Notes: generated from the letters alone by a model not told the origin. A stretch of DNA of 64,000 nt from Bdellovibrionales bacterium GWA1_52_35 (GCA_001769805.1 MEPO01000011.1:41623-105622); one strand, 5' to 3'; positions 2,058 through 46,028 are shown, counted from the first letter of the stretch. Made by a program: numbers and translations.

Positions 2058-2814
2058 GACTATCGGTCAATCTGAAAAAAATCATAGAAATGCTGAGACC
2101 GGCACCGATAATGGCCGCCACTAGCACAAACATGCACAACCTCATGAACGTTGGCGGGGGCGTGACTCGCGGTTTATCGAGCAGGCGGGTAGGATAAGAT
2201 TCATTGGGACTGAGCAGCGCCTTTATCTGGTGCTGTCTGAATTTTAGAATTCCGACGTTCGAAAGCAACTCAACAGAAGCGAGTCTTGAATTCGGCATTC
2301 TCTTTTCTAAATCTGTAACAATTCTGTCAATATCTCGAAGGGCCGCCCTCGTCTCGCTCAGTTGCAAATCTGCCATTATCTTATGTTCCTGGATGATCAG
2401 TTCTGCAGCTCCCGAAAGGAATGCCTCAACCACTTCGCCCGACCGAGCGCGTGCAATCAATTCAATCCTTTCAGCGGGGTGCAGAACAGAAACAAATGAT
2501 TCCTGCAGCAACTGAATATCCTTACGATCTAGCCCTACTTTAAGACCGCTTATTATCCGCTCGCTAAACTCTTTCCTGCCGATCTTTGCCATAACATTAT
2601 GGGGCGAATCAACCGAACGAGAGGCAAAACCCTGCTCGAGTGTACCAGATCGACCGAGCACTAGAACAAGACTTCCAATATACATTGGCCGATATAACAG
2701 CACTGAAACACAACTGAATAATGCAAACACCAGCGCGATTCCAAAAATCCACCTTTTTCTGGAAATAATTGCCAGTACGAAATCACGCAACAAGGGCATC
2801 TCCTTTTTTGTCAA
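2035..2814 (-). CDS. Wzz-like polysaccharide chain-length determinant (short form)
   Basis: 259 aa with one N-terminal TM (IALVFALFSCVSVLLY) and one C-terminal TM (LCMFVLVAAIIGAGLSI). A predicted coiled-coil periplasmic middle lies between them. The gene sits beside wzy/wzx. Confidence 0.5.
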   Translation of the reverse strand: MTKKEMPLLRDFVLAIISRKRWIFGIALVFALFSCVSVLLYRPMYIGSLVLVLGRSGTLEQGFASRSVDSPHNVMAKIGRKEFSERIISGLKVGLDRKDIQLLQESFVSVLHPAERIELIARARSGEVVEAFLSGAAELIIQEHKIMADLQLSETRAALRDIDRIVTDLEKRMPNSRLASVELLSNVGILKFRQHQIKALLSPNESYPTRLLDKPRVTPPPTFMRLCMFVLVAAIIGAGLSISMIFFRLTDSHGNTNES

Positions 2815-4027
2815 TCAAATCGAAATCGGCCGCAAGCGCAACCGTGGCAAAAGAAAAATACCAGAAGTGTGGCGATAAGAACAAGGCGCCAGAAAGCATG
2901 GAATCAATTAGATATTGGAGGTATAGAATGGCAACCCATGCGGACTCGGAATGGCCCCGCACCGACTTAAGTGCCGACCCAACACCAATCGCAATCAATA
3001 TCATCATACAAATTCCGGATATCACACCGCCAGCCAAGAAACTTTCTATCAGAATATTATGAGGATATGTTCTGGAATTTTTTTCTACAAGGGCGCTCCC
3101 CAAGATGGGGGCACCCAGCGCTTGTTCAACTGAATTACGCAAAAGGTCTGACCGAATTGCATTCGAGGCATCCTGAGAAACTCCAGTCACCCGAATTATC
3201 GGCTTATAAATCGTATTCTGGTTTACAACCCACAGTATACCCAAAAGCAACCCACACACCGAAAAGGCCAACCCAATTCGCAAGACGAGTGGTTTACGAT
3301 TCCAGTATATCGATAGCAAAAAAGTGCACAGAACAAAAGCTAGCACGGGACCCTTGGAAGCAGCCATGGCTGTCGTCAACATTCCGCCCAAAAGGAAAGC
3401 AGAAGCAAGAACAAGCCTCCACCAACGCCAACCATCAAAACTGTCGAGAATTAATGTGAACAAAATCAAAAAAAAAGAAACCGACAAGTGACCTAACGAA
3501 ATAGGATTCAACACTTGAGTGGACATCCTACCAATCCACGGACTCTCAGCTTTAATGACAAAAACAATCCACCAGACAGCAACAATTGATATAGCTGAAA
3601 CCAGAAGCGTCATTTTGCGCGCTAAACGCAGCTCTTCAAAGCTAGAATTTATAAATGCCAAGGCAGGAATCCAGGCTACGGCCAGACCGTACATCAAGTA
3701 ATCTGAGGCACTCGGGACCATTGACACCCCTGCTACCCAGCCGTCCCAGATTAAACGCAGCAGAAGAATTGACCAAAAGAACAAAGCTAGGGCAGCAAAC
3801 CCCCGGCACCCGATCACTTGTATGGTCTTGAACCTATGCGTAATCAAGGCGCCTGATATAAGAAGAAACAACAACCTAAAAGTAATTGATATTGGACGAG
3901 AATCTTCAAAATGTAATAAAATACAGAGAGAAGAAAACAGGGGATAACCGGCTATTGCTAACGAATACAACAATGGAGTCAACCACAGGGACACCCCGGC
4001 ACGTCGCTGAATTTTTGCCGTAATCAT
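2783..4027 (-). CDS. wzy: O-antigen polymerase/ligase family membrane protein (Wzy_C-type)
   Basis: 414 aa with at least 10 TM segments. The large periplasmic loop contains ..RTYPHNILIESFLAGG.., matching the Wzy_C H-N-x-x-L-E motif. The gene is adjacent to wzx and wzz. Confidence 0.6.
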   Translation of the reverse strand: MITAKIQRRAGVSLWLTPLLYSLAIAGYPLFSSLCILLHFEDSRPISITFRLLFLLISGALITHRFKTIQVIGCRGFAALALFFWSILLLRLIWDGWVAGVSMVPSASDYLMYGLAVAWIPALAFINSSFEELRLARKMTLLVSAISIVAVWWIVFVIKAESPWIGRMSTQVLNPISLGHLSVSFFLILFTLILDSFDGWRWWRLVLASAFLLGGMLTTAMAASKGPVLAFVLCTFLLSIYWNRKPLVLRIGLAFSVCGLLLGILWVVNQNTIYKPIIRVTGVSQDASNAIRSDLLRNSVEQALGAPILGSALVEKNSRTYPHNILIESFLAGGVISGICMMILIAIGVGSALKSVRGHSESAWVAILYLQYLIDSMLSGALFLSPHFWYFSFATVALAADFDLIDKKGDALVA

Positions 4028-4158: not shown

Positions 4159-5487
4159 ATGCCTACTAAGTTCAACGCTATCTTTCAAGCACTCGGTAAA
4201 TTGTTACCACAAAGTGCTTTCGCTAAAAGCGTATCCATCATAGCCGGAAGCACCACCCTTTCCCAAATAATCGCATTCGCAGCCGCCCCCGCACTCACGC
4301 GACTGTATACGCCCAACGATTTCGGCCTTTTCCAGGCGTATTTATCGATTATCGTGTTCGGAACTGTTACGGCATCCTTCCGTTATGAACTAGCGATTTT
4401 TATACCTGAAAAGGACCGCGACGCCATTCAGCTCCTCGCTCTCTCGATTGGACTCACAATTCTGTCTTCGTCTTTATTTTTCGTTTTTCTTCGATTTCTT
4501 CAATGGGCATCTCTCATACCCGAAAAATATCAACCGTTAGCGTCATATTTTTGGATCGGCGCGCTTGCCGTGTGCGGGTTTGGAATATTCCAGGCACTCA
4601 ATAACTGGGCCTTGAGGAAAAAGGCATTCTCAGTCGTGGCAACTACTAAAATATATCAAACGATCAGCATGTTAGCTGTACAGCTGGTGGCCGGTTTTTA
4701 TGGCAAACCAACAGTCTCTTACCTGCTTGCTGGTGATTTAATTGGACGCATTACCAGCGTGTTTTCGCTTTTACGCACACACCGTAAAGAAAGCAGATCC
4801 CTAATCTCTGAAGTGAACGCTCAAGCAGTCCTTTGTCAAAGCCGACGGTATTTTAAATTTCCACTCGTCTCCACTCCATCAGCGCTCCTGAACGCGGCCG
4901 GAATATACCTCCCGATGCTGCTTTTGGGTGAATATTTCGGGTCATCAACCCTGGGTCATTTTGCTCTCGTAGAGCGCGTAATGGGGGCCCCCACAATATT
5001 AATAGGAGGCGCCATCGCTCAGGTTTATATGGAAAAAGTTGCACGCCTCGGAAAAGACAACCCCAAAGAGCTTCATCGCCTTTTTCTATCCACATGCTGG
5101 AAACTTCTAAAGCTCGGGATAATCCCCTATACGCTTGCGGCAATACTGGGTCCGTGGTTTTTTCGGACCGTCTTTGGTGCGCCGTGGAGTGAGTCTGGGC
5201 AATTCGCAATGATTCTGGCTCCGGCCTATTTAGTCGCTTTTGTTCTCTGGCCGTTGCTTTCGACGCTATCAATCCTGGAACACCAGTCTTGGCAGCTCGC
5301 ATGGGACATTTCGCGAATGGTTTTTACGTTAGGTGGGTTATGGATATGTCATCGGCTGAACGTAAAACCTACAATAGCGATTTTCATCTATGGAATGACT
5401 CTGAGCCTTTTTTATATGGTTCACGCACTCCTGTCTCAAGTGGCAATTAGGAAACGAATGCTCCTCTTCCTGGCAGCAAATAATTAA
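4159..5487 (+). CDS. wzx: Wzx-type oligosaccharide flippase (polysaccharide biosynthesis protein, MOP superfamily)
   Basis: 442 aa and about 12 TM segments. The N-terminal ..GKLLPQSAFAKSVSIIAGSTTLSQIIAFAAAPALTRLYTP..FG.. is typical of O-unit flippases. Confidence 0.75.
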   Translation: MPTKFNAIFQALGKLLPQSAFAKSVSIIAGSTTLSQIIAFAAAPALTRLYTPNDFGLFQAYLSIIVFGTVTASFRYELAIFIPEKDRDAIQLLALSIGLTILSSSLFFVFLRFLQWASLIPEKYQPLASYFWIGALAVCGFGIFQALNNWALRKKAFSVVATTKIYQTISMLAVQLVAGFYGKPTVSYLLAGDLIGRITSVFSLLRTHRKESRSLISEVNAQAVLCQSRRYFKFPLVSTPSALLNAAGIYLPMLLLGEYFGSSTLGHFALVERVMGAPTILIGGAIAQVYMEKVARLGKDNPKELHRLFLSTCWKLLKLGIIPYTLAAILGPWFFRTVFGAPWSESGQFAMILAPAYLVAFVLWPLLSTLSILEHQSWQLAWDISRMVFTLGGLWICHRLNVKPTIAIFIYGMTLSLFYMVHALLSQVAIRKRMLLFLAANN

Positions 5488-5616: not shown

Positions 5617-6579
5617 GTGGATCAACTTGCCCCAAATAACCGAACCCTCTCCATTGTCGTTCCCCTCTATAACGAGGAAGAAACCCTAGCCTATACTCAT
5701 CAGCGCCTTGCTCGGCTGTGCCTGAGTGAAAAACTGTCTGATATTTGTAAAATTGAAATCATCTATGTCGATGATGGTAGTGAGGATTCCTCCCCGGAGA
5801 TCCTGAAAGCAATTATAAATAGCAACACACCCGCGCTGGAGGCTCGGCATATCCGTTTTTCGAGGAATTTTGGACATTCTGCCGCCGTATTTGCCGGTTT
5901 AGAATTCGCAAAAGGAGATGTCATTGCGATTATTGATGCGGATTTGCAGGATCCACCGGAACTCATCCCACTCATGTATGAGCAGTTATGCAAGGGCGCT
6001 GATGTTATTTATGGCCAGCGGATAACCCGCGAGAGCGAGACACCGATCAAGCGGCTTACAGCATGGCTATTTTACAGAGTATTAGCTCTACTAACGGGCG
6101 TTAACATACCAAAAGATACTGGCGATTTTCGGATTATGGTTCGCGAAGTGGCGGAAGCGGTTCTCTCCTGTAAAGAGCATGAGCCATTTCTGCGCGGGCT
6201 GGTTGCCTGGGTAGGCTATCGTCAACGAGCATTCCAATACACTCGCGAAGGGCGCAAATATGGAACTACTAAATACCCATTTAAGAAGATGTTCCGCTTT
6301 GCTGCATTGGCCTTGGTAAGCTTTAGCTCTTTACCACTACGACTCGCACTTTACACAGGAGCGTTAGGATTAATTTTAAGTCTGGTATTTTTCCTTTGGG
6401 CGATTTTTGAGAGAGTTCACGGGCAGACGGTGCCAGGCTGGGCGTCTCTCTTTGTAGCGTTTACCTTTGGTCATTCGATGACATTGATGTTGGTCGGAAT
6501 AGTTGGAATCTACATTGGTCGACTCCATACTGAAACACAGGGACGGCCACGGTACATTGTGCGCCGAAGCCGCGGATAA
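5617..6579 (+). CDS. GtrB/ArnC-like polyprenyl-phosphate hexose synthase (GT2 with C-terminal TM pair)
   Basis: Has LSIVVPLYNEEETL, YVDDGSEDSS and IIDADLQDPPELI, matching the ArnC/GtrB DADLQ.PPE motif. Two C-terminal TM helices are present (ALVSFSSLPL..., LMLVGIVGIYIG). Confidence 0.8.
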   Translation: MDQLAPNNRTLSIVVPLYNEEETLAYTHQRLARLCLSEKLSDICKIEIIYVDDGSEDSSPEILKAIINSNTPALEARHIRFSRNFGHSAAVFAGLEFAKGDVIAIIDADLQDPPELIPLMYEQLCKGADVIYGQRITRESETPIKRLTAWLFYRVLALLTGVNIPKDTGDFRIMVREVAEAVLSCKEHEPFLRGLVAWVGYRQRAFQYTREGRKYGTTKYPFKKMFRFAALALVSFSSLPLRLALYTGALGLILSLVFFLWAIFERVHGQTVPGWASLFVAFTFGHSMTLMLVGIVGIYIGRLHTETQGRPRYIVRRSRG

Positions 6580-6613
6580 AGCATTCCCTCATTAAGGCAC
6601 TTGGAGGTGTTTT

Positions 6614-7369
6614 TTGAACAAGATTAAAGCTGAACCGACCGGGCTTCACGAGAGACTTTCTGAATTCGACGAGTATGCCGGTGATTACAATGCCGGAATG
6701 GAAAACCCGATCAAGCGACTCTTGGGCTCATCGGCGGACGACTACATTGACGTAAAGGCGAAATGGCTGATCAGGTATCTTGAAAAAGACAACAGAGGCC
6801 TGCCCGACAAACCGATGCGTATGCTCGATTTTGGTTGCGGACTTGGCGTATTGTTGCGCGCAGTACACCGACGCGGCTTTAAAGGTTCTTTGCATGGCTG
6901 CGATGTCTCGGAGCAGATGTTACAGCGCGCCGAAAAAATGGTGGGCTCCATAGCTGATTTTACCTTGATCAGCGAAAACGAGGTGCCGTTTCAGGATGAT
7001 ACTTTTGATGTCGTAGTTGCTAGTTCTGTTCTTCACCACATTCCCTCTGCCGACCGGGATAGATATTATAAAGAACTTATTCGCATCTTAGCGCCTGGGG
7101 GCGCCTTGGTAGTTTTTGAGCATAATCCCAGAAACCCCCTTGTTCGATGGGTAGTAAGTCGAACACCCATTGATAAGAACGCAGTTTTACTGGATTCATC
7201 CGAAGTACAACAGGCGTTTAAACACTTTCAAATGCTCAACGTGGACTGCCAATATATTTTATTCATGCCTCCGAGATTCAAGTGTATGCAGTCATTAGAG
7301 CGCCATCTAATACAAGTTCCTCTTGGTGGGCAATATGCCGTTTCTGGCTTGAAGCCTCCGATACGATAG
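6614..7369 (+). CDS. Class I SAM-dependent methyltransferase
   Basis: TTG start 6 nt after a GGAGGTG RBS. Motif I is MLDFGCGLGVLL. The acidic post-I CDVSE and motif IV-like LAPGGALVV are present. Confidence 0.75.
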   Translation: MNKIKAEPTGLHERLSEFDEYAGDYNAGMENPIKRLLGSSADDYIDVKAKWLIRYLEKDNRGLPDKPMRMLDFGCGLGVLLRAVHRRGFKGSLHGCDVSEQMLQRAEKMVGSIADFTLISENEVPFQDDTFDVVVASSVLHHIPSADRDRYYKELIRILAPGGALVVFEHNPRNPLVRWVVSRTPIDKNAVLLDSSEVQQAFKHFQMLNVDCQYILFMPPRFKCMQSLERHLIQVPLGGQYAVSGLKPPIR

Positions 7370-7377
7370 GTTCATAT

Positions 7378-8952
7378 ATGGAATTCAAAAAATGGCATTA
7401 CCTTTGGATTCTCGCACTATCGCTAACTGTTACCGTCTACTGTTTTGGCCCCAATATGAATGCAAGATGGTGGGGCGTAGATGACCACGAGATTATGGAC
7501 TTCTTGGGGCCAGCGCAAACAGTTAAGATCCGCGACATTCCCCAATTGTTAGTCACTAAAACAGAGGTCGGACAACCGGGATCCAACCTTAGGTATCGTC
7601 CATCATATTATATTATCAAGCTGCTGCAGGCGTCGTTTTTTGGTCTAGAACCCCAGCTGTGGTACGCATACAACCTGATCGTTTCATTTACGTTCTTCAC
7701 CGTTATTTTCTATTTGCTGATGGCTTGGATCGGCCCCGCCCTGGGGACGCTCTGCTGGATATGGATCGTGAGTCCGTATTATTGGTCAGACATATTTTCA
7801 CGTCTTGGTCCGGGAGAAATTCATGCGGCGCTTGGGGCCGCTCTCTTTTCATTCGGCTTTTATCACAGCTGGAATAGCACTAAACATAATATTAAAGTTG
7901 ATGTTGTTTGGCTTTTGACTGTCACAGGTGCCATTGTTGCTGCCGGTTCCAAAGAAAATTTCGTCCTTTTGCTTATCCCATTATTGCTGCTCCTTTATCG
8001 CACCCGGAAGAAAAAGCTCTTAACACCGCTCCGACTCATATCCCTGGGAGCTGCGATCATGTACATCGTCGGCATTGCATCTGTAGTTGTTATGGCATTG
8101 GTTCGTGCAAAGCATGACTTTTATGCAAATGCCGTGGGACCCGGAGATCGGTTATATTTACTCTTACACTATTTTACAAATTTGACGGAACACGCATTTT
8201 TAGTTTGCCTGACCTTAACCTTCAGCTTGGCGGCCTATGCTACCGGCTTTTTTTCAGAAAAATTTTACATTAGGCCGGAATTATCAAGACTCCGTCAGAT
8301 CTTCGGCCCGATTTTTGTGTTTCAATGCGTACTGCTTTCCATCTCTTTATCCCAATATGTATTCTATAATGGAAGCTGGCCCACTCAGATGCGATATGAC
8401 TTCCCGGGGGGAATGCTGCCAGCTCTTGGAGTTTTTGCAATTTTCCGGGGAACTGTAATTTTTTTCGAGGCCTCGAAAAGACATTGGAAATATTTGGCAC
8501 ATTTTGCCGCCGCTATATTGACACTCGCCGTCATCGCAAAGGAAAAACCCCAGAGGCTTCGGCTGGCAGCCCTAGAGAACGTTCAACGCACTTCAGTTTT
8601 TACCAAGTCAATCGAATCTATTCGCGATAAGATCAGCGGTAGGTTTGGAGTTCCGCTCGTGTTCTCTTCTCATTCTGTATGGGATTATGAGCTTACTTTC
8701 TCTATTCAAAGATTTTTAAATGTATATGGTGTAAGCAATCCAATGGCCTTAGAATTAGTTAAATATAAACCGGACACATTCCCAACTGGTTCCCTAGAAA
8801 GAAGCTTGAGCCAGCGATTAAAGGGGATTTCTGAAGTCGGCGGTTCTGGGTTTATTTCTAGCAAAACTGCAAAAAGCTCCGCTCCTTGCTTCGGTGTTGG
8901 CCTTAGTGGTCCTGCCGGTAAGGCTTGCGAAGATCTAGGACGGGCTTGGTAA
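7378..8952 (+). CDS. Large polytopic membrane protein (candidate GT-C-fold glycosyltransferase)
   Basis: About 525 aa from the internal ATG at 7378; the track ORF at 7282 overlaps the preceding methyltransferase. It has at least 11 hydrophobic segments and an extracytoplasmic loop with DHEIMDF near the first TM. It follows a GtrB-like GT2 and a methyltransferase. Confidence 0.5.
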   Translation: MEFKKWHYLWILALSLTVTVYCFGPNMNARWWGVDDHEIMDFLGPAQTVKIRDIPQLLVTKTEVGQPGSNLRYRPSYYIIKLLQASFFGLEPQLWYAYNLIVSFTFFTVIFYLLMAWIGPALGTLCWIWIVSPYYWSDIFSRLGPGEIHAALGAALFSFGFYHSWNSTKHNIKVDVVWLLTVTGAIVAAGSKENFVLLLIPLLLLLYRTRKKKLLTPLRLISLGAAIMYIVGIASVVVMALVRAKHDFYANAVGPGDRLYLLLHYFTNLTEHAFLVCLTLTFSLAAYATGFFSEKFYIRPELSRLRQIFGPIFVFQCVLLSISLSQYVFYNGSWPTQMRYDFPGGMLPALGVFAIFRGTVIFFEASKRHWKYLAHFAAAILTLAVIAKEKPQRLRLAALENVQRTSVFTKSIESIRDKISGRFGVPLVFSSHSVWDYELTFSIQRFLNVYGVSNPMALELVKYKPDTFPTGSLERSLSQRLKGISEVGGSGFISSKTAKSSAPCFGVGLSGPAGKACEDLGRAW

Positions 8953-8953
8953 A

Positions 8954-9886
8954 ATGATGAATACTACGGACTTGAACATTGCTGTCTTGATTCCCTGTTA
9001 CAACGAAGATCCCACGATTGAGGGCGTAATCACTGATTTTAGAAAGCATTTACCGAACGCTTTAATTTATGTTTTTGACAACAACTCTAAGGACAAAACG
9101 GCCGAAGTGGCGCAACGCGCCGGGGCAAACGTTATCCAATCTAAACAGCAAGGAAAGGGCCATGTCGTTCGCCATATGTTCGATTTGGTTGAAGCTGATT
9201 ATTACGTAATGGCTGACGGAGATTCCACCTATCCAGCCGACGCTGCCCCAGGGCTGATCAAGCTGGCGGTCGACTCTGGTGCCGATATGATTGTTGGCCA
9301 AAGACTTGAGCAGCACACCTTGGCCTCATTTAGGCGCTTTCATAAATTTGGGAATCATCTGATCAGTAAGATTATTAGACTACTATTCCAAGTGTCTGTA
9401 ACCGATGTTCTGTCCGGTTATCGGGTACTGTCACGACGGTTCGTCAAGAGTGTACCCCTTATTTCAAAGGGCTTTGAGGTCGAGACAGAGCTAACTTTGC
9501 AGGCGGCAATCAAGCGCTTTTTAATTCTTGAAACTCCGGTTCGCTACAAAGATCGGCCAGCAGGTAGCGTTTCAAAGCTCAACACTTTCAGCGATGGTAT
9601 TTTGATATTTAGAACGATTTTCTTCATTTTTAGGTATTACAGGCCATTTATATTTTTTGGATTTTGTAGCGCCTTATTGGCGCTAATATCGGTTGTTTTA
9701 GGCACCCCCGCGATTTTGGACTATATTAACAAGCAGTATGTATATCATCTGCCAAGTGCGGTACTAGCTGCCGCATTTGGTATTCTGTCGGTTTTGATGT
9801 TTTGCGTAGGCATGGTTCTCGAAACCGTTCACCGATATCATCAGGAGACTTTTTTATTGTGGAAGAGACTTCTCAATCTAAAATAA
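8954..9886 (+). CDS. Membrane-anchored family 2 glycosyltransferase (DPM1/GtrB-like)
   Basis: Has AVLIPCYNEDPTI, FDNNSKDKT and MADGDSTYP (DxD region). Two C-terminal TM helices are present (FIFFGFCSALLALISVVLG, VLAAAFGILSVLMFCVGMVL). Confidence 0.75.
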   Translation: MMNTTDLNIAVLIPCYNEDPTIEGVITDFRKHLPNALIYVFDNNSKDKTAEVAQRAGANVIQSKQQGKGHVVRHMFDLVEADYYVMADGDSTYPADAAPGLIKLAVDSGADMIVGQRLEQHTLASFRRFHKFGNHLISKIIRLLFQVSVTDVLSGYRVLSRRFVKSVPLISKGFEVETELTLQAAIKRFLILETPVRYKDRPAGSVSKLNTFSDGILIFRTIFFIFRYYRPFIFFGFCSALLALISVVLGTPAILDYINKQYVYHLPSAVLAAAFGILSVLMFCVGMVLETVHRYHQETFLLWKRLLNLK

Positions 9887-9921
9887 ATACTGCTTATAGC
9901 GGCGTAGATAATCTTGAAACC

Positions 9922-10581
9922 ATGAAATATGCCGTTAATTACAACGCGTATTTGTTAAGAAATATTTTCAGCGGCTGCGACAGCGCTGATTACGTATGCC
10001 TTGACTTCGGAGCTGGAAATGGTTTTTTTGCAAATGAGGTGCGCAAATCAGGTAAACGCCTTGTCTGTGTGGAAAAAGACGACACACTTCGGCAAGAACT
10101 CAGGGAGTCCTCCTTTGAAGTAAAAATGAGTCTCCAAGAAGTAGGGACAGAGGAAGTAGACTATGTCTATTCCTTAAACGTGTTGGAGCATATTGAAGAT
10201 GATTCACACATATTAGCTGAACTGTTTAGAGTCTTAAAACATGGGAAGCGCGCATTTATATATGTCCCTGCAATGACGATGCTTTATTCATCAATGGATC
10301 GCAAAGTCGGGCACATTCGTCGATATAGTCGTGACGAGCTTATAAGAAAGGTGAAGTCAGCTGGATTTCGCCTTGAGCACTGTACTTACTGCGACACCGT
10401 CGGTTTTGTGTCCACCTTGGTTTATAAATTCCTTGGTAACACGGATGGAAGCATTAATAGACGAACGGTGGTATTTTTTGATAGAGTATTGTTTCCGCTC
10501 AATAGATTCTTAGATTGGGTATTTGGAAATTGGCTTGGAAAAAATATTATTGTATTAGCACGAAAAGACGCCCCACTCTAA
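9922..10581 (+). CDS. Class I SAM-dependent methyltransferase
   Basis: The true start is taken as the ATG at 9922, after the stop of the upstream GT2; the track ORF at 9802 overlaps that gene. Has motif I VCLDFGAGNGFFA, then LVCVEKD and LKHGKRAFIYVP. Confidence 0.7.
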   Translation: MKYAVNYNAYLLRNIFSGCDSADYVCLDFGAGNGFFANEVRKSGKRLVCVEKDDTLRQELRESSFEVKMSLQEVGTEEVDYVYSLNVLEHIEDDSHILAELFRVLKHGKRAFIYVPAMTMLYSSMDRKVGHIRRYSRDELIRKVKSAGFRLEHCTYCDTVGFVSTLVYKFLGNTDGSINRRTVVFFDRVLFPLNRFLDWVFGNWLGKNIIVLARKDAPL

Positions 10582-12470
10582 AGCTTAAAGAGGTAGTTAT
10601 TCCCGTTCCCTTCCAGTCGGATTGCTGATTTTGAAATGACTTCGTCTATATGAATCATCAATGCAAGACTGTCTCTTTCGTCTTTGGTCAGGTTTTTAAT
10701 CCTAACAAGCCAGTCTTTTCTCCAGTCAACCGTTTGAGTATTGGTAAGCCAATAATATATCCCTTTTTTTCTAAGATGATCTTTTATTTGGTTATAGTCC
10801 GGCTTTCCCGAAAGTGTGTGAAGCTGAAGCTGTCTCCCATTCCGTAAAAATTCGTAATCATCGAAATATCGGAGACTTATTAGTTCAAACATATACCCAC
10901 ACTCGCGTGACAGTATTCGTCTAGACGATTTAAACACCGCAAGCGGATAATCGTGGAGGCTCTGCGTCAAGTAATCTGTAACTTTATTCGGATTAAGAAT
11001 ATACTGTGTAACTGCTAACGGCTCGCGGCCATTTTGAAGATATGCAAAACAAAAAATCGCGGCAGCCAAAAGCGATTTCCACTGGAATCTAAAGAAATAC
11101 AGAAATACCCCGGTAAGCAACACCCCAAGATAAAATGTCGACAAAATGTAGCGGGCCTGATGAGAACCCGTCCAAAAGTTGATGGTCAGAGCAAGAAAAT
11201 AGAAGATGGCCAGAAAGAGCAGGTCCTTCCTTTGATAAAGGCCCTTAAAGAACAGCACACATATTGAAAAAAATGCTCCAAATTCCGCGAGACGATAATT
11301 CATGACGCCACGTAAAGAGAAAGTAGATATTGCGTAGTTTTCAAAGTTTCCTGACAAGAGACGATATGGAGTCAATAAATAATTAATGAGAGTTCTCGGA
11401 AAAGTGAAGTGAGCCAAATTATCGTATACCAATTGCAGATACTCGGCATCGGGCATCCCCCTGTGCCCTAAATAGAACGGCCATACCGGGTTGCCAAATA
11501 AAATTAGATTTTTTGCATACCAAAACAAAGCAGGAACAATACCAACGATAATAGACAGGACCAAAGGTCTAACTTTCGTTGCATTTTTATGCCTGTCTGA
11601 AAACATGGCAAAGGACAGTGCAACAGAAAACGTAATCGCCGCGGGGATTAGTGCAGTATACTTAATCGCCAGAGCACCACCAGCCCCCAAACACAGAAGG
11701 CGGAAGAACGTTGGATCAGCCGTTCGGATCCAGAGGGCGCAACTTAAAATGGAAATCATCTCCATGCATGCTGCGCCGACATCAACGTAACAAGTATGCG
11801 CGATTTCGAAGCTAAAATGGTAAACCAGCACCAACAAGGCAACTAGCCGTGCAATTTTTGGAGTAGTTAATATTTTAAACGCGGAAAACACAAAAAGTGC
11901 CATTGCCACGAGATGGGACACGTGAAACAGCTTCGAAAGTGTGTAGTCGCTCGTTAAAGCATGGCCAAACCAATAAATAATATCCAGCCCTTTTGGCAGG
12001 GCACCGTAAAAATTCGGTTTTGTACTAAGCTCGTAATTTTTGGTAAGTGGCAAGTGATAAGCTAAAGCATCCCAACTAACCTCTGGAAGGGCCGCACGCA
12101 GGCAATGAATCGCCACAAAAAAACCGAACAGCACCGTGAACCAATTGAAATGAGCATATTCTCGGATAAACCTAATCGGCGATACGCCCCGCCTCGAAAC
12201 CAACAACATGACCACGGAGGCCGCAAGTATCAGGAAAAATATCAACGTCGCATTTGCCGAATTTAATTGAGCAAGCGTAACAGACGGAATGAGAATAATG
12301 GATAAAGTAATATTTCCACAAACTATCGCGATGCCCAGATTCCCAATTTTAAACTGTTGGTGCTCCACCCTCAGCTGGAGAGCCCGAGAAACAATGGAAC
12401 CCATAATCGCCGTAGTACTTACAACAAACAGCGATACCCCCAATATGGCCAATTGATAATGATAATTCAT
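10578..12470 (-). CDS. Large polytopic membrane protein (630 aa; candidate GT-C-fold glycosyltransferase, ArnT/PMT-like topology)
   Basis: At least 13 hydrophobic segments in the N-terminal 470 aa, then a soluble domain of about 150 aa. Its stop overlaps the stop of the convergent methyltransferase. Confidence 0.5.
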   Translation of the reverse strand: MNYHYQLAILGVSLFVVSTTAIMGSIVSRALQLRVEHQQFKIGNLGIAIVCGNITLSIILIPSVTLAQLNSANATLIFFLILAASVVMLLVSRRGVSPIRFIREYAHFNWFTVLFGFFVAIHCLRAALPEVSWDALAYHLPLTKNYELSTKPNFYGALPKGLDIIYWFGHALTSDYTLSKLFHVSHLVAMALFVFSAFKILTTPKIARLVALLVLVYHFSFEIAHTCYVDVGAACMEMISILSCALWIRTADPTFFRLLCLGAGGALAIKYTALIPAAITFSVALSFAMFSDRHKNATKVRPLVLSIIVGIVPALFWYAKNLILFGNPVWPFYLGHRGMPDAEYLQLVYDNLAHFTFPRTLINYLLTPYRLLSGNFENYAISTFSLRGVMNYRLAEFGAFFSICVLFFKGLYQRKDLLFLAIFYFLALTINFWTGSHQARYILSTFYLGVLLTGVFLYFFRFQWKSLLAAAIFCFAYLQNGREPLAVTQYILNPNKVTDYLTQSLHDYPLAVFKSSRRILSRECGYMFELISLRYFDDYEFLRNGRQLQLHTLSGKPDYNQIKDHLRKKGIYYWLTNTQTVDWRKDWLVRIKNLTKDERDSLALMIHIDEVISKSAIRLEGNGNNYLFKL

Positions 12471-12753: not shown

Positions 12754-14391
12754 ATGAGACGACCCCATTACGGCACGCTCCGCTTTACCGATATCATTTC
12801 AGGCGTGATTACGAGATCAGTTGCACTATTTCTGGTGTTCTGGGGGACTGCCTACTTTATTCACGAGCCCATATTGGGTCACAATTCTCTTACAAATCTG
12901 ATTATGGGCGCCGCCCCGCTACATGGCATGGGCGCTCCTTATCGAGATTACTGGGACATTTATCCGCCAGGCATTTATATTATATATGGTCTTCTCGAAT
13001 TTCTTTTTAGCGGAAATATTTTAGCGTATAAACTGCTACACATAGGAACAGTATTGGCCGTCTGTGAAATGGCTTCCGGTTTAGTGCGGACGCGCATCGG
13101 CAATACGATTGGGTCGGCTGCGGACCGTATTGCTTACATCTTCTTTTCGGCAATCACATGCTTAATGCTGAACTCGCCCCACCTGAATACAATATTTTTT
13201 TCTAATGTATTGATCTGTGTTCTTATTTCGGTCGCCGGACTTTCTTTTTTTATCTATTCCCGCTCGCTTTTTTTTTGTTACGGTCTAAGTACATTCTTGT
13301 TTACTTTTTCCGGATTTGTAAAAGACCCGTTTATATTTACAGCGGTGCTCCCGGCCCTCTTTATTTTTCGTGAATTCAAGAGTAAAAACCGAACAATAAA
13401 AGCACTCGTCTGGACCTTTCTGGGCGCCACCGCGGCGGTTTTGATAAACGGTGCCTATCTCGTTAAACTTAATATCGCTGGTTCATACCTAGAGGTGTTT
13501 AAGTTTAAATATGACTACTTTATTAAAGATAAAACAGTGGGCGCCGGCGAAGGAAAGCCGCTTGATTTCCTCAGTGAGTATTTTGAATACACATTTTATT
13601 ATTCGGACGTAATTATTTATCTGATGTTTGCAGTATTTGGGATTTCAATAATTTTAGCTTTACGACAGTACTCGAAAAATTCTCGTTGTTCGTGTGACTA
13701 CTTGATATATCCAGCATTTTTTTTGTTAAACTATATTGGGTTTAAAGCACAGGGGCGCATAATCGGAACTTATTGTTTGCAAATGACAGTACCAACTGTA
13801 CTTGTTTGTTGTCAGATTTTTGTACTTTTTCGGAAAATTACTTTTAATGTTCAGTTCGGTTCGTTTGTTGCTCTGCTGACGCTGTTCGCCTTTTTACCGC
13901 AAAGAGAGGTTTTTGCTTCCTTCTTTAAACAGGAATTCCCTGCTCCAAGAGAGTACTACGAAGGCTTACGTGTCAAACGGGCTCAAGCGCCCGAAATCTA
14001 TTCTCCGCTACTAAAGCAACTCCTAAGCGAAGATAAGTCCATGTTGGCTCTTTACGGATGGGGCACACCAACTTATTACTATAAATTTAATGTTAAACCG
14101 TTTTCTAGATTTTTTGTTGTTCATCCGAATATCTTGGGTGACCACCAGCTAAAAGAGTGGGTAACGGCTTTTAAAAGCAAGCTCCCACGGGTTGTAATGT
14201 ATTTGTCAGATCCCCAGAATGCTGACATGGATGTTGAACTTTTCGAGAGGCAAACAATTAATATCGGAAAGCTTTTAAAAGATTGTTACAAGAATGTTGA
14301 TACTAAATTCTACGTTCTTCCCGCCGGCAAGTGCGCTTTGTTTGATTTAGATATTGGGGCATATATTAACCCAAAATACGTTAACAATTAA
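12754..14391 (+). CDS. Polytopic membrane protein, AT-rich, Phe-rich (function unknown; glycan-locus associated)
   Basis: 545 aa with at least 12 TM segments and a C-terminal soluble part of about 130 aa. Codon usage is very AT-biased, with several T8-T9 runs. Confidence 0.45.
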   Translation: MRRPHYGTLRFTDIISGVITRSVALFLVFWGTAYFIHEPILGHNSLTNLIMGAAPLHGMGAPYRDYWDIYPPGIYIIYGLLEFLFSGNILAYKLLHIGTVLAVCEMASGLVRTRIGNTIGSAADRIAYIFFSAITCLMLNSPHLNTIFFSNVLICVLISVAGLSFFIYSRSLFFCYGLSTFLFTFSGFVKDPFIFTAVLPALFIFREFKSKNRTIKALVWTFLGATAAVLINGAYLVKLNIAGSYLEVFKFKYDYFIKDKTVGAGEGKPLDFLSEYFEYTFYYSDVIIYLMFAVFGISIILALRQYSKNSRCSCDYLIYPAFFLLNYIGFKAQGRIIGTYCLQMTVPTVLVCCQIFVLFRKITFNVQFGSFVALLTLFAFLPQREVFASFFKQEFPAPREYYEGLRVKRAQAPEIYSPLLKQLLSEDKSMLALYGWGTPTYYYKFNVKPFSRFFVVHPNILGDHQLKEWVTAFKSKLPRVVMYLSDPQNADMDVELFERQTINIGKLLKDCYKNVDTKFYVLPAGKCALFDLDIGAYINPKYVNN

Positions 14392-14436: not shown

Positions 14437-15996
14437 CTACTTGTGGATCATATCTGACGCAGATACCTTGCGTTTAGCTCGCGAATTTTCAAGTTGCCTA
14501 ATGGCAGCTCTGAAGAAACCACTGACGAGAACTCTATGCTCGATATTAATATCTTCGGCGATTTGCCTCGGAAGAAACTTCCAATGAGCATTACTCCTGG
14601 AATCGGCAAGGGCTATCTGATCAATCAACTGCCCAGAAACATCTGCTTTTTGTATTAAGGGGATTTTTAGAATATTGCCGGGTTCATTTAGTGGATTTCT
14701 CCAAGTCAGGTGAGATCGTAGATGAGTACTGGGATTATTAATAGTGATGGCATACTCGGAAATACCAAATTCGATCGCCGTTTGGTGCACCAGCGCCTCA
14801 ATCTCTGAAAAATTTGCGGCAACCGTAAGGCGCGAAATCTGAAGAGCTGCAAAGTGGTTAGCAATGATAAAATGCGGTCGGCTATCGCGAAAACGCTTCG
14901 TGGTAAAGCCGCGGAGGTAGCCGCAGTAATGGAGCAAAATCCCCATAAGGGCTCCAGATAGCAAAAGCAGCCAGGCCGCTGCTCCCCGTGTATATGCCAG
15001 ATTAACCCAAAGAACACTACCAGCCACGAGTGAAACCACTGCGGCAGCTAACGAAATATTCGCCGCAGTCCAGGAATTTGCGAGTAATTTGTGATGGATG
15101 TGGCTTTGGTCCGCACTGCCAATAGGCTTACCCTTCAAAATTCGCCGTAGGACAGAAAGCATTACTTCAAGGACTGGGTAGAAAGCAATGAGGCTTGCTG
15201 CTGGTACATGAAATAAGAAAGGTTCCTGCTGTAAAGACGGCGAAAAACCCAGGTGACTAAATCGCATCGGGGATTTTGTTCCAAGCGAGATCAGCAGACA
15301 AGAAATAAACACACCGAGCCCCATGCTTCCAGAGTCGCCCAGGTATATTTTGGCGGGCCGCCAATTCAGCAGCAAAAAGCCTGAGAGAGCCCCAAATCCG
15401 GCGGAAGCAAGCGCAAGTCCTGTTTTGTCCCCTAAAATAGATGCGCTAATAGCAATAGATAAAAGTATGACAGCGGCGACACTGCCAGCAAGGCCGTCCA
15501 CCCCGTCGATTAGGTTTATTCCATTTGTAATGGTCAGAATCCAGAGAACTGTAAAGGGTACCTCAAGCACACCCAACAATAAGGGATCGATCCCGGGGAT
15601 TCGCACTACCTCAAAACGCCATGCAAAAACCGAAAACATTAACGCAAGAATAACCTGACCCAAGAGTTTATAGCGGGCGCGAATCTGAAATTTGTCATCA
15701 AGCAATCCAAGAATTGCTGCAGCACTGCTGATGCCGATAATCCAAAAAAGCTTGCCGCTTTCTATTTCAGAAAAGGAAACAGAATGGGTCTGACTAAAAA
15801 AACAGCCGCTTACGAAAATCCCCAAAAAAATTGCGCCGCCCCCCAGGAAAGGGATGGATTTCTCATGGATCTTCCGGTGGGCCGGTCGGTCTAATAAATC
15901 CAATCGAATCGCAAGCCTCATAATCAGGGGCAGTACCAATAGGGTAGATAAAAAAGCGATCACCGCAAATATGGAATAGGACCAAAACCCTGTCAT
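14437..15996 (-). CDS. WecA/WbpL/MraY-family polyprenyl-phosphate N-acetylhexosamine-1-phosphate transferase with about 170-aa C-terminal cytoplasmic extension
   Basis: Has ..GLLDDKFQI.. (DD motif), ..NGINLIDGVDGLAGSVA.. (the N-x-x-D-G-x-D-G-L signature) and ..GDSGSMGLG... There are 10-11 TM segments, followed by a soluble tail. Confidence 0.8.
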   Translation of the reverse strand: MTGFWSYSIFAVIAFLSTLLVLPLIMRLAIRLDLLDRPAHRKIHEKSIPFLGGGAIFLGIFVSGCFFSQTHSVSFSEIESGKLFWIIGISSAAAILGLLDDKFQIRARYKLLGQVILALMFSVFAWRFEVVRIPGIDPLLLGVLEVPFTVLWILTITNGINLIDGVDGLAGSVAAVILLSIAISASILGDKTGLALASAGFGALSGFLLLNWRPAKIYLGDSGSMGLGVFISCLLISLGTKSPMRFSHLGFSPSLQQEPFLFHVPAASLIAFYPVLEVMLSVLRRILKGKPIGSADQSHIHHKLLANSWTAANISLAAAVVSLVAGSVLWVNLAYTRGAAAWLLLLSGALMGILLHYCGYLRGFTTKRFRDSRPHFIIANHFAALQISRLTVAANFSEIEALVHQTAIEFGISEYAITINNPSTHLRSHLTWRNPLNEPGNILKIPLIQKADVSGQLIDQIALADSRSNAHWKFLPRQIAEDINIEHRVLVSGFFRAAIRQLENSRAKRKVSASDMIHK

Positions 15997-16167: not shown

Positions 16168-17172
16168 ATGAAACGCGCACTGATTACCGGCATTACCGGT
16201 CAAGACGGATCCTATTTGGCTGAGCTACTCTTAGAGAAAGGCTATGAAGTTCATGGCATTATTCGGCGCTCAAGCTCGTTCAATACAGACAGAATTGACC
16301 ATCTTTACAAAGACCCCCATTATAAAGATGCTCGCCTTTTTCTCCATTATGGCGACTTATCGGATTCGACGGGTTTAAACAGAACCCTTCGGCAAATTAA
16401 ACCTGCCGAAATTTACCACCTAGGCGCCCAGAGTCATGTCCGAGTCAGTTTCGATATTCCCGAATACACCGGAGACGTAACCGGACTGGGGACAATTCGT
16501 TTGCTGGACGCAATCTTAGATACCGGAATCGAAACCCGCTTTTATCAGGCATCCAGCTCTGAAATGTTCGGAAAAGTACTTGAAGTCCCCCAAAAAGAAA
16601 CTACTCCGTTTTATCCCCGCAGTCCCTACGGCTGCGCCAAAGTGTACGCCTACTGGATTACGGTTAATTATCGTGAGGGCTATAACCTGCATGCCTCTAA
16701 TGGGATCCTGTTTAATCACGAGTCCCCACGTCGCGGCGAAACTTTCGTTACGCGCAAAATTACCCGCGCCCTGGCCCGGATCCTCACTGGAAAGCAGAGC
16801 GAGCTATTTCTAGGTAACCTCGATGCGAAACGCGATTGGGGCTATGCTAAAGACTATGTTGAAGCCATGTGGATGATGCTTCAAACACCAAAAGGCGATG
16901 ATTATGTGATCGCCACGGGGGAAACGCATTCAATTAAGGACTTTTTAGATCTCTCCTTTGGTCTTGTCGATCGTGATTGGGCAGACTACGTCAAAATTGA
17001 CCCCAAATATTACCGCCCAACCGAAGTAGACCTCCTGATTGGTGATCCTTCCAAGGCGAAAAGCCAGCTGGGTTGGAAACCAAAATGCAGTTTTTCAGAG
17101 CTCGTTCGACTGATGGTCACTGAGGATCTGAAACTGGAGGGTTTGGATCCTGAAAAATGGATTAAGAAATGA
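16168..17172 (+). CDS. gmd: GDP-mannose 4,6-dehydratase
   Basis: [40 protein letters not shown] (YxxxK) and [18 protein letters not shown] are all present. These are near-canonical Gmd sequences. Confidence 0.95.
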
Positions 17173-18137
17173 GCAAACTTTCCATTATGGGACCTGATAG
17201 TCGGGTTTTTGTTGCCGGCCACTGCGGTTTGGTGGGGTCAGCGCTTGTACGATGTCTTGAGAAGAAACAATACACAAACATCGTAGTCCGTAAACGCGAT
17301 GAACTCGATCTCCTTAACCAATCAGCGGTAAATAAATTTTTTGCTGAGAATCAGATTGAGTTTGTATTTTTAGCCGCAGCCAAGGTCGGTGGCATTCAGG
17401 CAAACAACACCTACCCTGCCGATTTTTTGTACGAAAACTTAGTCATTGAGACGAACGTTATCCATGCAGCAGCAAGTCACAAAGTTTCAAAACTCCTTTT
17501 TCTGGGAAGTTCTTGTATTTATCCTCGTGAGGCGCCTCGGCCCATTCGAGAAGAGAGCCTTCTAACGGGGCCGCTTGAGTTTACCAATGAGGCATATGCA
17601 ATTGCTAAAATTGCAGGGCTTAAGATGTGTGAAACGTACAAACGCCAGTACGGCCACAGATTTATTTCAGCTATGCCCACCAACCTTTATGGGCCTTTCG
17701 ATAATTTTCATCCGGTAAATTCGCATGTCATTCCTGGGATGATGCGCAGATTTCATGAAGCAAAAATAGCGCGCGCCCCCACTGTTTCAGTCTGGGGTTC
17801 TGGGCTGCCCTTGCGTGAGTTTCTCCACGTAGATGAACTGGCCGATGCTCTTTACCTGCTGATGCAAAAATACGAAGCGCCCGAAACCATTAACGTTGGC
17901 ACTGGTGAGGACTGCAGCATTAGCGAACTAGCCGCAAAAATGAAAGCCGCCGTGGAGTACACCGGGGAAGTGATTTTTGACCCCTCCAAACCCGATGGAA
18001 CTTTTAGAAAAGTGCTTGAAATTTCGAAGATCAAGAGCCTTGGGTGGACTCCTCGTATTGCCCTCAGTAGCGGGTTAAGAGATACCTACCAATGGGCCCT
18101 CCGATCGGGCGTATTTAGCCTAACCAGCACCCAATGA
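17169..18137 (+). CDS. fcl: GDP-L-fucose synthase (GDP-4-keto-6-deoxymannose 3,5-epimerase/4-reductase)
   Basis: [14 protein letters not shown] and [16 protein letters not shown] are present. The start overlaps the gmd stop (ATGA). PTNLYGP.DNFHP matches the classic Fcl motif. Confidence 0.9.
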
Positions 18138-19440: not shown

Positions 19441-20316
19441 ATGATAGAGCTGACAGTTAAGAAAAATATGGGAATCAACCTCGTTGATGCAAAACTAATT
19501 TTAGAAATTTTCGGCGAGCGGAAGAACCGCTTTGATCGAGTCCTGACCCTCGGACGTCAACAGCTGTTCTTTAATCCTCGCCGATTTGCTCACTGGGCTC
19601 AAAAGCACACAAATTGCGGAATCGGACGCGTCACAAATTTTTTAAACGAAGCTCAGGACGGAGGAGTGGCAGATCCTCTATTTAAGCTCTTGGGCGTCGG
19701 TCGTGTGGAGTCTTTGGACTATTCTTCATATGAAGGAGCTAGTATTTGCCACGACCTGAATAGGCCGATTCCTGATTCATTGAAGTCTCAGTTTGATCTG
19801 GTTTTTGATGGTGGAACACTGGAACACGTTTTTAATTTTCCTGTCGCCCTCAAGAACGCGATGGAACTCGTGCGACCAGGTGGATTTCTTCTTTCCATTC
19901 TTCCAGGCAATAATCAGGTAGGACATGGTTTTTATCAATTTAGCCCGGAGCTTTTCCACAATGCCCTTAACAAAGTGAATGGCTTTGAGCTACTCGAGCT
20001 TATTGCGATTGAGCTTTCGCCGTTTCATCGATGCTATCGGGTTACGGACCCGGCTACCTTGGGTGAGCGCGTAACCTTGACGAACCGCTGGCCTGTGAAC
20101 CTATTTATTCTGGCCGAAAAGATTTCTGACCAGCCCGTTTTTGCAACGCCTCCCCTTCAGTCCGATTATCAGCTTAAATGGAAGAACCAGAACCCAAGGG
20201 AGGCAACCTCCCCAGGCATGATGCGCCGGATTTTGAGGAAACTTTTTGGACTGTTCAGACCTGAAGGATCGGGCTTTCGAAATCCTCAACACTTTACGCG
20301 CATTCATTTGAAATAA
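19441..20316 (+). CDS. Putative SAM-dependent methyltransferase (class I-like)
   Basis: Has ..FDLVFDGGTLEHVFNF... and LVRPGGFLL.. like Methyltransf_11/23 members. Motif I is weak. Confidence 0.4.
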   Translation: MIELTVKKNMGINLVDAKLILEIFGERKNRFDRVLTLGRQQLFFNPRRFAHWAQKHTNCGIGRVTNFLNEAQDGGVADPLFKLLGVGRVESLDYSSYEGASICHDLNRPIPDSLKSQFDLVFDGGTLEHVFNFPVALKNAMELVRPGGFLLSILPGNNQVGHGFYQFSPELFHNALNKVNGFELLELIAIELSPFHRCYRVTDPATLGERVTLTNRWPVNLFILAEKISDQPVFATPPLQSDYQLKWKNQNPREATSPGMMRRILRKLFGLFRPEGSGFRNPQHFTRIHLK

Positions 20317-33969: not shown

Positions 33970-33972
33970 GGA

Positions 33973-36808: not shown

Positions 36809-37152
<344 letters not shown>

Positions 37153-45937: not shown

Positions 45938-46028
45938 AGGTATTATCGGCGATCTAACCACAACGAAGCATCTTTTAAAATGAAATTGACTAGACGCGGC
46001 GACCACTGCAACAGTAGCGAGAACGGCT

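Follow-up and report, generated by a model that had tools for sequence, protein, structure and literature searches.

Why does a gene for an S-adenosylmethionine (SAM)-dependent methyltransferase accompany, three times in one glycan locus, the genes for a polyprenyl-phosphate-sugar synthase and a large polytopic membrane protein? The locus lies in a 64,000-nucleotide stretch of DNA (GCA_001769805.1, MEPO01000011.1:41623-105622; G+C content 50%) from Bdellovibrionales bacterium GWA1_52_35, a Bdellovibrio-like bacterium from groundwater. This whole stretch is referred to here as the window, and positions are counted from its first letter. A preliminary description, made from the sequence alone, had listed three sets of a family 2 glycosyltransferase (GT2), a methyltransferase (MT) and a membrane protein (MEM), with the GT2 and the MT of set 3 fused, and had read them as a Gtr/Arn-type system that delivers methylated sugars. 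We propose that the window encodes three modules for periplasmic glycosylation, independent of one another and of the Gtr/Arn ('three-component') type, each of which would have an added methyltransferase, and we lean towards the view that a methylated sugar is delivered through a polyprenyl-phosphate donor to a GT-C glycosyltransferase.

Three sets with the same gene types

All eight open reading frames (ORFs) of the three sets were found where they had been described, and Pfam recognized a GT2 domain and a class I methyltransferase domain in each set, fused to one another in one of the three (Table 1). The synthase of set 1 (GT2_1) is similar over its full length to the NCBIfam families PgfS (5e-69) and ArnC (1e-39), and that of set 2 (GT2_2) to AglJ (4e-68) and dolichol-phosphate (DolP)-hexose transferase (1e-26); as all NCBIfam matches of the GT2s are under the curated (equivalog) cut-offs, they denote family-level membership and not orthology. 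Both enzymes end in transmembrane (TM) helices typical of GtrB-type enzymes, with segments at residues 228-294 in GT2_1 and two helices, segments 229-280, in GT2_2.

The three methyltransferases have a Rossmann-type SAM-binding domain of the Pfam Methyltransf_11/23/25 families, with a glycine-rich motif I (DFGCGLG in MT_1 and DFGAGNG in MT_2) and an acidic residue after strand 2. MT_1 has no TM helix, and its nearest solved relatives are MitM, PH0226 and RebM (3bus, 6.8e-9). None of the three could be assigned to a specific subfamily such as UbiE/UbiG, rRNA methyltransferases or BioC, the NCBIfam matches being far under the curated cut-offs (UbiG 41 bits vs 103; BioC 52 vs 185). They are generic class I enzymes, and the match to an unrelated specific family that the preliminary description had named as a refutation was not found.

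The sets share gene types and not recent ancestry, because their GT2s are only 22–26% identical (BLAST), MT_1 and MT_2 barely detect each other (E 0.47) and BLAST found no similarity among MEM_1, MEM_2 and MEM_3; MEM_1 and MEM_2 are unrelated by profile as well (hhalign probability 0.4%). Tandem duplication of the sets was rejected on these grounds, so that 'present twice in tandem' holds for the gene types and fails for duplicates. Shuffling of 50 gene units gave P ~1e-4 for at least three ordered GT2-MT-GT-C triplets. This null model is simplistic, and recurrence in other genomes is therefore the stronger test.

The membrane proteins as GT-C glycosyltransferases

None of the three membrane proteins matched Pfam at E values up to 10, including PMT_2 and PMT. 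ArnT was the best Foldseek match of the models of both MEM_1 and MEM_3. For MEM_3 (AlphaFold2 model, pLDDT 88), ArnT (E 4e-7, TM-score 0.60) and ALG9 (0.58) were followed by ALG12, STT3, PglB, AftA/D and Emb; its family is rare, with 34 representatives among 1.84 billion proteins. A profile search of MEM_1 against PDB sequences was uninformative. By predicted fold, MEM_1 and MEM_3 are GT-C enzymes that stand outside the curated ArnT/PMT_2 families. MEM_2 can be placed among the GT-C enzymes through its homologues, since 11 of 13 match Pfam PMT_2 (best 7.5e-13) and four match PMT. MEM_2 itself matches the NCBIfam LIC_10190 family (6e-9), its best PDB profile match is yeast Pmt2 at a marginal E of 0.38, and its family profile aligns with that of MEM_3 over 343 columns (hhalign E 5.6e-5).

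Each membrane protein has a conserved acidic motif in its first external loop: an invariant IDDHE at residues 34-38 of MEM_1, an invariant D134 within WDALAYHLP (pattern WDxxxYH) in MEM_2 and a nearly invariant D35/E36 in MEM_3. In the models of MEM_1 and MEM_3, this motif is seen to follow the first helix. The earlier reading of the membrane proteins as GT-C-like is therefore upheld, by GT-C folds or by homologues that match PMT_2, and no transporter or acyltransferase fold was found among them.

A synthase–methyltransferase fusion conserved across phyla

In set 3, a Glycos_transf_2 domain (residues 6-161) and a Methyltransf_11 domain (305-397) lie in one polypeptide, here called FUS, as had been proposed. 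No TM helix or hydrophobic segment was detected in its 490 residues; a C-terminal TM domain like that of the Pyrococcus furiosus dolichol-phosphate mannose synthase (DPMS) is thus absent. FUS resembles PpgS in NCBIfam, under the cut-off, and its best solved relative is the DPMS of Pyrococcus furiosus (PfDPMS, 5mlz; profile E 1.6e-28). Compared with the functional sites of PfDPMS (PMC5526996), FUS D92/D94 correspond to D89/D91 of the DxD motif, D38 to the guanine-binding D39 and H97 to H94; R118, R132 and T136 correspond to R117, R131 and S135, where the phosphate of Dol-P binds, and R205 and K211 to R202 and K208 of the A-loop. E13 is also kept, and T96 stands in place of Q93. An alignment of 20 members of the family shows these DPMS-equivalent residues as invariant or almost so. 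The retention of the donor and acceptor residues therefore speaks for a GDP-sugar as the donor of FUS and polyprenyl phosphate as its acceptor.

The FUS family has 2211 matches in the protein collection, and the top 120 all combine GT2 and MT (55–82% identical). Both active sites are invariant, including SAM motif I and the acidic residue, and the linker carries a conserved QGW..YW. Relatives were found in 375 species genomes of at least eight phyla, at 46–82% identity; the hosts include Bdellovibrionota, Oligoflexia, Myxococcota, Planctomycetota, Verrucomicrobiota, Acidobacteriota, Omnitrophota, Gemmatimonadota and Gammaproteobacteria, and one locus belongs to a Coxiellaceae genome. Such conservation, with invariant motifs in both domains, supports the idea that the fusion signals joint action of GT2 and MT. 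As the SAM-binding motifs are invariant, the MT domain is likely to be catalytic rather than structural.

The conserved partners of FUS are the two genes directly upstream, which the preliminary description had overlooked. Homologues of the TylCIII-type C-methyltransferase occur in 64 of 80 FUS loci (median identity 55%) and those of the GDP-mannose 4,6-dehydratase (GMD)-like short-chain dehydrogenase (SDR) in 52 (median 44%); the latter matches the NCBIfam GDP-mannose 4,6-dehydratase at 2e-56, under the cut-off. Just upstream of the C-methyltransferase gene, an ORF of 83 aa (36860-37111) matches Epimerase/GDP_Man_Dehyd. It may be a remnant, because in many other genomes this place is occupied by a GMD-like gene of full length; the intact GMD of the window is at 16168-17172.

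A fixed pair of FUS and MEM_3 was considered and dropped in favour of FUS with a variable GT-C, as BLAST found no MEM_3 homologue beside FUS in the 80 loci. Of 79 loci, 27 encode a large polytopic protein right beside FUS (~12 expected, P 4e-5) and 56 encode one no more than three genes away (~32 expected, P 3e-8), the expectations being derived from the outer genes of the same loci. Those neighbours that Pfam could classify were assigned to GT87 (5), PMT_2 (5), YfhO (3), PTPS_related (2), PIG-V (1), ALG3 (1) and PMT (1), and no Wzy, Wzx or transporter was found among them. All of these families take their names from transferases of lipid-linked sugars or from related membrane proteins, and we take GT87, PMT_2, YfhO, PTPS_related, PIG-V and ALG3 to be GT-C families.

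In 14 loci an extra Methyltransf_23 gene follows FUS, and in Scalindua and Omnitrophota genes for B12-binding radical-SAM proteins flank it (L020:3563-4468, L025:11503-12915 and related loci; L numbers denote surveyed loci), which suggests that the sugars of such loci carry several methyl groups. The FUS cassette probably builds a GDP-derived C-methylated 6-deoxyhexose, loads it on polyprenyl phosphate, methylates it further and passes it to the GT-C of the host.

Recurrence of sets 1 and 2 in other genomes

The GT2-MT-GT-C triad recurs beyond the fusion, as the preliminary description had led us to expect. Relatives of MEM_1 lie in arrays of epimerase, GT2, MT, a 114-aa EamA/TMEM234-like membrane protein, GT-C and Wzx in Geobacter sp. 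FeAm09, of MT, GT2 and GT-C in Leptospira adleri, and of rml genes, WecA, GT2, MT and GT-C in Ca. Methylopumilus universalis, which has a genome of 1.3 Mb. A MEM_2 relative lies in an array of FdtA, DegT, GT2, MT, GT-C and PMT_2, and another (L173) has a housekeeping context with neither GT2 nor MT.

For MEM_1 relatives, 80 metagenome loci were surveyed, many of them truncated. Within 3.5 kb of the MEM_1-type GT-C, a GtrB-like GT2 was detected in 39 of the 80, an MT in 24 and both in 16. Nineteen loci extend for 2.5 kb or more to either side of the GT-C; of these, six have both genes, four only the GT2, one only the MT and eight neither. The MT genes concentrate next to the GT-C, with 21 at a distance of up to 1 kb (1.82 per 10 kb) vs 11 at 1–6 kb (0.41 per 10 kb), a 4.4-fold difference. 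These MTs belong to at least six lineages that detect each other barely or not at all.

Between MT and GT-C, several loci encode a small membrane protein of ~112–139 aa (L090:6622-6966, the Geobacter sp. FeAm09 copy; L097:2750-3127; L102; L117; L133). The Geobacter copy matches EamA/TMEM234-like profiles (Pfam E 9.5e-7) and that of L097 has no Pfam match. This small membrane protein is a candidate flippase comparable to ArnE/F.

A proposed mechanism and its rivals

The analysis shows the gene types, the GT-C folds, the kept donor and acceptor residues of DPMS and the conservation of fusion and synteny, and this anatomy fits the mechanism that we propose. At the cytoplasmic face, the GT2 (GtrB/ArnC-like, AglJ-like or DPMS-like) would load polyprenyl phosphate with a single sugar taken from a nucleotide sugar. 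That sugar would then be methylated by the SAM methyltransferase encoded next to the GT2 or fused to it, most likely once it is on the lipid, although methylation of the nucleotide sugar just before its transfer is also possible. The methylated polyprenyl-phosphate sugar would be flipped, and the GT-C would transfer the sugar to a periplasmic acceptor, probably the Wzx/Wzy-made polysaccharide of the same gene island. The sugar of set 3 would probably be a GDP-derived 6-deoxyhexose already C-methylated (TylCIII-type) and reduced (GMD-like). Within this mechanism we infer the substrate of the MTs, the order of the steps, the identities of the sugars, the route of flipping and the acceptor. Three observations argue for a common sugar of GT2 and MT, namely their fusion, the enrichment of MTs by position and the fact that unrelated MTs have been recruited repeatedly. 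SAM is cytoplasmic and none is available in the periplasm, so a methyl group on a sugar delivered in this way must be added before flipping. Methylation on the lipid-linked monosaccharide itself is a tentative proposal, which we hold plausible but short of an even chance. The broader idea that many phyla use polyprenyl-phosphate monosaccharides O- or N-methylated on the lipid carrier, by MTs dedicated or fused to the synthase, is put forward just as tentatively.

Methylation could instead occur on the nucleotide sugar, the GT2 then loading an already methylated sugar on polyprenyl phosphate, and this alternative fits the data as well as methylation at the lipid stage. The MTs are soluble proteins that lack membrane segments, and the GT2 and MT beside a MEM_2 relative come after FdtA and DegT, in resemblance to the routes to N-methylated amino sugars. 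N-methylated amino sugars are made at the nucleotide level (TylM1/DesVI). The pathway of set 3 already has a TylCIII-type C-methyltransferase that works at the level of the nucleotide sugar (PMC3539893). We nevertheless consider this alternative rather unlikely, and favour the lipid-linked stage, because the fusion to a membrane-surface enzyme puts the MT where the lipid-linked product emerges, and because closely related GtrB-type GT2s pair with MTs of different lineages or with none, which is easier if the GT2 sees an unmethylated donor. In addition, characterised sugar O-methyltransferases, RebM included, mostly act after glycosyl transfer.

The MTs might also be ordinary O-antigen tailoring enzymes that act on the undecaprenyl-pyrophosphate (Und-PP)-linked repeat unit or on another substrate, their adjacency reflecting crowded and shuffled clusters. 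Polysaccharide clusters abound in MTs whose substrates are Und-PP-linked repeat units, the window itself has two MT-like genes (19441-20316 and 21333-22103) that are not beside a polyprenyl-phosphate GT2, and the MT sequences give no clue to their substrate. Many GT2/GT-C pairs lack an MT, and so does a further module of the window around a fourth synthase (GT2_4; Table 1), overlooked by the preliminary description; the MT is thus best seen as a frequent but optional insert in such pairs. Chance adjacency is, however, hard to reconcile with a fusion that is conserved across phyla and in which neither active site varies, with the enrichment of MTs near the GT-C relative to the flanks of the same loci, with the recruitment of so many MT lineages to the same position, with the retention of the triad in the streamlined genome of Ca. 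Methylopumilus universalis, or with the low probability of three ordered triads in the window. Taken with these points, ordinary tailoring appears unlikely. It is quite improbable, in our view, that the MT domains have a role unrelated to the sugar, whether methylation of the lipid carrier or acceptor, SAM sensing or a structural function, or that the polyprenyl-phosphate (methyl) sugar is an end product. A weak sub-threshold similarity to the lipid-acting MTs UbiE/UbiG, PmtA and CFA synthase and the lack of a fixed GT-C partner of FUS would agree with such a role, but the invariant SAM-binding motifs argue for catalysis, the conserved neighbours of FUS are sugar-nucleotide enzymes and further MTs, and GT-C enzymes are enriched beside it.

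Several observations weigh against our proposal of methylated donors that pass through a GT-C, in addition to the MT-free module and the general abundance of MTs in polysaccharide clusters. MEM_2 and MEM_3 are convergent to their own GT2-MT partners, not co-directional with them, and the MTs match generic class I profiles only, with no substrate-specific signature. A detectable MT is missing in 23 of the 39 GT2-positive loci of the MEM_1 family, many of which are truncated; the statistics on gene neighbourhoods are built on coarse ORF calls, on counting by hydropathy and on the detection of MTs from seeds. MEM_3 homologues are absent beside FUS in the 80 loci, the criterion for a large membrane protein there (at least 380 aa and at least seven hydrophobic segments) is crude, and Pfam could classify 17 of the 56 polytopic neighbours. 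No GtrA-, ArnE/F- or MATE-like flippase was found near the modules in the window. The genes of sets 1 and 2 abut, leaving no room for a flippase gene between them, and the window as a whole has no ORF of 70–220 aa with at least three hydrophobic segments. In the literature, of which our coverage was incomplete so that absence is not proof, nothing relevant was found on methylated undecaprenyl-phosphate or polyprenyl-phosphate monosaccharide donors or on GT2-MT-GT-C modules.

Comparison with known systems

Periplasmic three-component glycosylation, a concept of Mann and Whitfield, comprises a synthase, flipping and transfer by a GT-C (Kelly et al. 2024, PMC11127046). Like GtrA/GtrB/GtrC, the window modules combine a GT2 polyprenyl-phosphate-sugar synthase with a GT-C in a polysaccharide locus and presumably use a lipid-linked monosaccharide donor; unlike them, they hold a SAM methyltransferase, once fused to the synthase, have no GtrA-like flippase gene in the window, and their GT-Cs belong to unnamed families with no Pfam match. 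Two of the three gene features of Gtr/Arn-type systems, the synthase and the GT-C, are thus present, and a dedicated flippase is not. The earlier proposal of Gtr/Arn-type delivery of methylated sugars is partly borne out: its gene anatomy holds, qualified by the lack of a flippase gene beside the modules, and the chemistry of the MTs is a matter of inference.

Polyprenyl-phosphate monosaccharides are tailored before flipping by deformylation (ArnD) and deacetylation (NaxD). Pentofuranose epimerases are reported to act at the same stage (PMC11127046). The window modules would resemble ArnC/ArnD/ArnE-F/ArnT, Francisella NaxD and the DprE1/E2 and ORF13 epimerases in placing a tailoring step between synthesis of the lipid-linked sugar and GT-C transfer, but the tailoring would be methylation. 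The likeness to Arn extends to ArnC as a close relative of GT2_1, to ArnT as the best structural match of MEM_1 and MEM_3 and, in Geobacter-type loci, to the small membrane protein that recalls ArnE/F.

Another relative is the Agl system of Haloferax volcanii, in which AglP acts on the hexuronic acid of an oligosaccharide and not on a separate monosaccharide donor. AglP is a SAM methyltransferase that takes part in the assembly of an N-glycan carried on dolichol phosphate (PMC3871713). With AglD/AglR/AglS and AglJ/AglP, the window modules share a DolP-hexose synthase, a GT-C-type transferase and a SAM methyltransferase, and GT2_2 is AglJ-like; unlike them, the Agl system serves archaeal protein N-glycosylation. 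Compared with the P. furiosus DPMS and eukaryotic DPM1, the N-terminal domain of FUS retains the DxD and the Asp that binds guanine, along with the residues of the A-loop and of the Dol-P phosphate site, but FUS has an MT domain in place of the four TM helices of PfDPMS, Thr96 stands for Gln93 and the donor is probably a modified 6-deoxyhexose and not mannose.

Upstream of FUS, the Methyltransf_13/14 C-methyltransferase and the GMD-like SDR are reminiscent of the pathway proposed for virenose in Coxiella burnetii, in which GDP-mannose is processed by GMD, a TylCIII-like C-methyltransferase and a reductase (PMC3539893). That proposal, unlike ours for set 3, includes neither a lipid-linked monosaccharide donor nor a further methylation. 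The papers on Coxiella lipopolysaccharide offered only this analogy in C-methylation, with no fusion homologue or MT link. MTs of the WsaE/WbdD type cap Und-PP-linked polymers in ABC-transporter pathways and are, like the MT of FUS, physically coupled to enzymes that assemble lipid-linked glycans. In the window, unlike in those pathways, the MT partners a DPMS/GtrB-type synthase in a locus of Wzx/Wzy type. Neither an ABC transporter nor a kinase or coiled-coil domain figures in the Pfam lists for the island; PMC11127046 mentions WbdD.

Genomic setting

Contigs of a metagenome-assembled genome from Rifle groundwater are identical to the window, and the identical MEM_1 protein is listed at NCBI under Bdellovibrionales bacterium GWB1_52_6. 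The sets belong to a large envelope-glycan island that extends from 161 to ~54,500 of the window, where prmA and RNase E mark its end (Table 1). It also holds several GT1 and GT2 genes and ~10 large polytopic proteins, and the acceptor glycan is probably the product of its Wzx/Wzy pathway. Unrelated genes break up the island at 22.5–32 kb: the segment 22584-32001 encodes a HATPase_c kinase, PMM/PGM, an AAA_14/DUF4143 ATPase, a FecR-like protein, a zinc alcohol dehydrogenase and a 406-aa ORF with a weak HNH match, which hints that the two halves were either joined or invaded. The initiating transferase of the WecA/MraY family has 519 aa vs the 346 positions of the WecA profile, owing to a C-terminal extension. 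MTs are common in the island, and the two MT-like genes on either side of a GT1 gene look like ordinary repeat-unit tailoring enzymes.

GT2_4 is a paralogue of GT2_1 (36% identity over the full length, E 2e-66). Its module comprises an SDR gene and two divergent genes of DUF2079 (Pfam 1.5e-11 and 1.6e-25), presumably a member of the GT-C clan. Five more large polytopic proteins (12754-14391, 35438-36808, 42396-44300, 50881-52788 and 52816-54531; 456–635 aa, 6–9 hydrophobic segments) have no Pfam or NCBIfam match, and those at 42396-44300 and 50881-52788 are paralogues (55% identical). With MEM_1 to MEM_3 and the DUF2079 pair, ~10 candidate GT-C-like proteins thus face only four lipid-sugar synthases in the island.

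Table 1. Features of the glycan island, with positions in the window
Feature	Position	Strand	Remarks
GT2_1, GtrB/ArnC/PgfS-like polyprenyl-phosphate-sugar synthase	5617-6579	+	Pfam Glycos_transf_2 3.6e-33
MT_1, soluble class I SAM-dependent methyltransferase	6614-7369	+	Methyltransf_25/11 ~1e-20
MEM_1, GT-C fold (predicted) glycosyltransferase of unnamed family	7378-8952	+	IDDHE in first periplasmic loop
GT2_2, AglJ/DolP-hexose-transferase-like polyprenyl-phosphate-sugar synthase	8954-9886	+	Pfam Glycos_transf_2 3.7e-17
MT_2, soluble class I SAM-dependent methyltransferase	9922-10581	+	Methyltransf_23/11 ~1e-12; stop overlaps that of convergent MEM_2 by 4 bases
MEM_2, putative GT-C (PMT_2/ArnT-type) glycosyltransferase	10578-12470	-	630 aa; 12 predicted TM helices
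TylCIII-type sugar C-methyltransferase (Methyltransf_13/14)	37153-38403	+	Pfam PF08421/PF08484
GMD-like short-chain dehydrogenase	38407-39369	+	Candidate GDP-4-keto-6-deoxyhexose reductase
FUS, DPMS-like polyprenyl-phosphate glycosyltransferase and class I methyltransferase	39383-40855	+	490 aa
MEM_3, ArnT-like GT-C fold (predicted) glycosyltransferase of rare family	40845-42323	-	DE motif after TM1
DUF2079 gene A	44309-46102	-	Pfam DUF2079; candidate transferase for GT2_4 product
DUF2079 gene B	46029-47681	+	Pfam DUF2079; candidate transferase for GT2_4 product
SDR epimerase/dehydratase beside GT2_4	47685-48680	-
GT2_4, fourth GtrB/ArnC-like synthase	48661-49674	-	Pfam GT2 2.8e-28; 2 C-terminal TM helices
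Wzy_C gene 1	2783-4027	-	Pfam Wzy_C
Wzx-type flippase	4159-5487	+	Pfam Polysacc_synt
WecA-like initiator	14437-15996	-	Pfam Glycos_transf_4; WecA family 1.6e-28
GMD and Fcl	16168-18137
Wzy_C gene 2	18134-19411		Pfam Wzy_C
MT-like genes flanking a GT1 gene	19441-20316 and 21333-22103		No polyprenyl-phosphate GT2 adjoining
rmlBADC	32039-35453

Significance

Much of the diversity in the side branches of O-antigens, teichoic acids and mycobacterial walls is explained by three-component glycosylation in the periplasm. To our knowledge, the tailoring of its lipid-linked donors has so far been limited to deformylation, deacetylation and epimerisation. If our proposal is true, a methylation step would explain how methylated sugars are added outside the cytoplasm, and, should methylation take place on the lipid carrier, the fusion of GT2 and MT would represent the first lipid-sugar synthase with the two functions 'make and methylate'. 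Two membrane-protein families that lack a current annotation can now be assigned a GT-C fold. Culturable carriers of these genes exist (Oligoflexus tunisiensis, Geobacter sp. FeAm09 and Leptospira adleri), and, with the fusion alone present in 375 species genomes, the methylation step would add a widespread enzyme family to the toolbox of periplasmic glycosylation.

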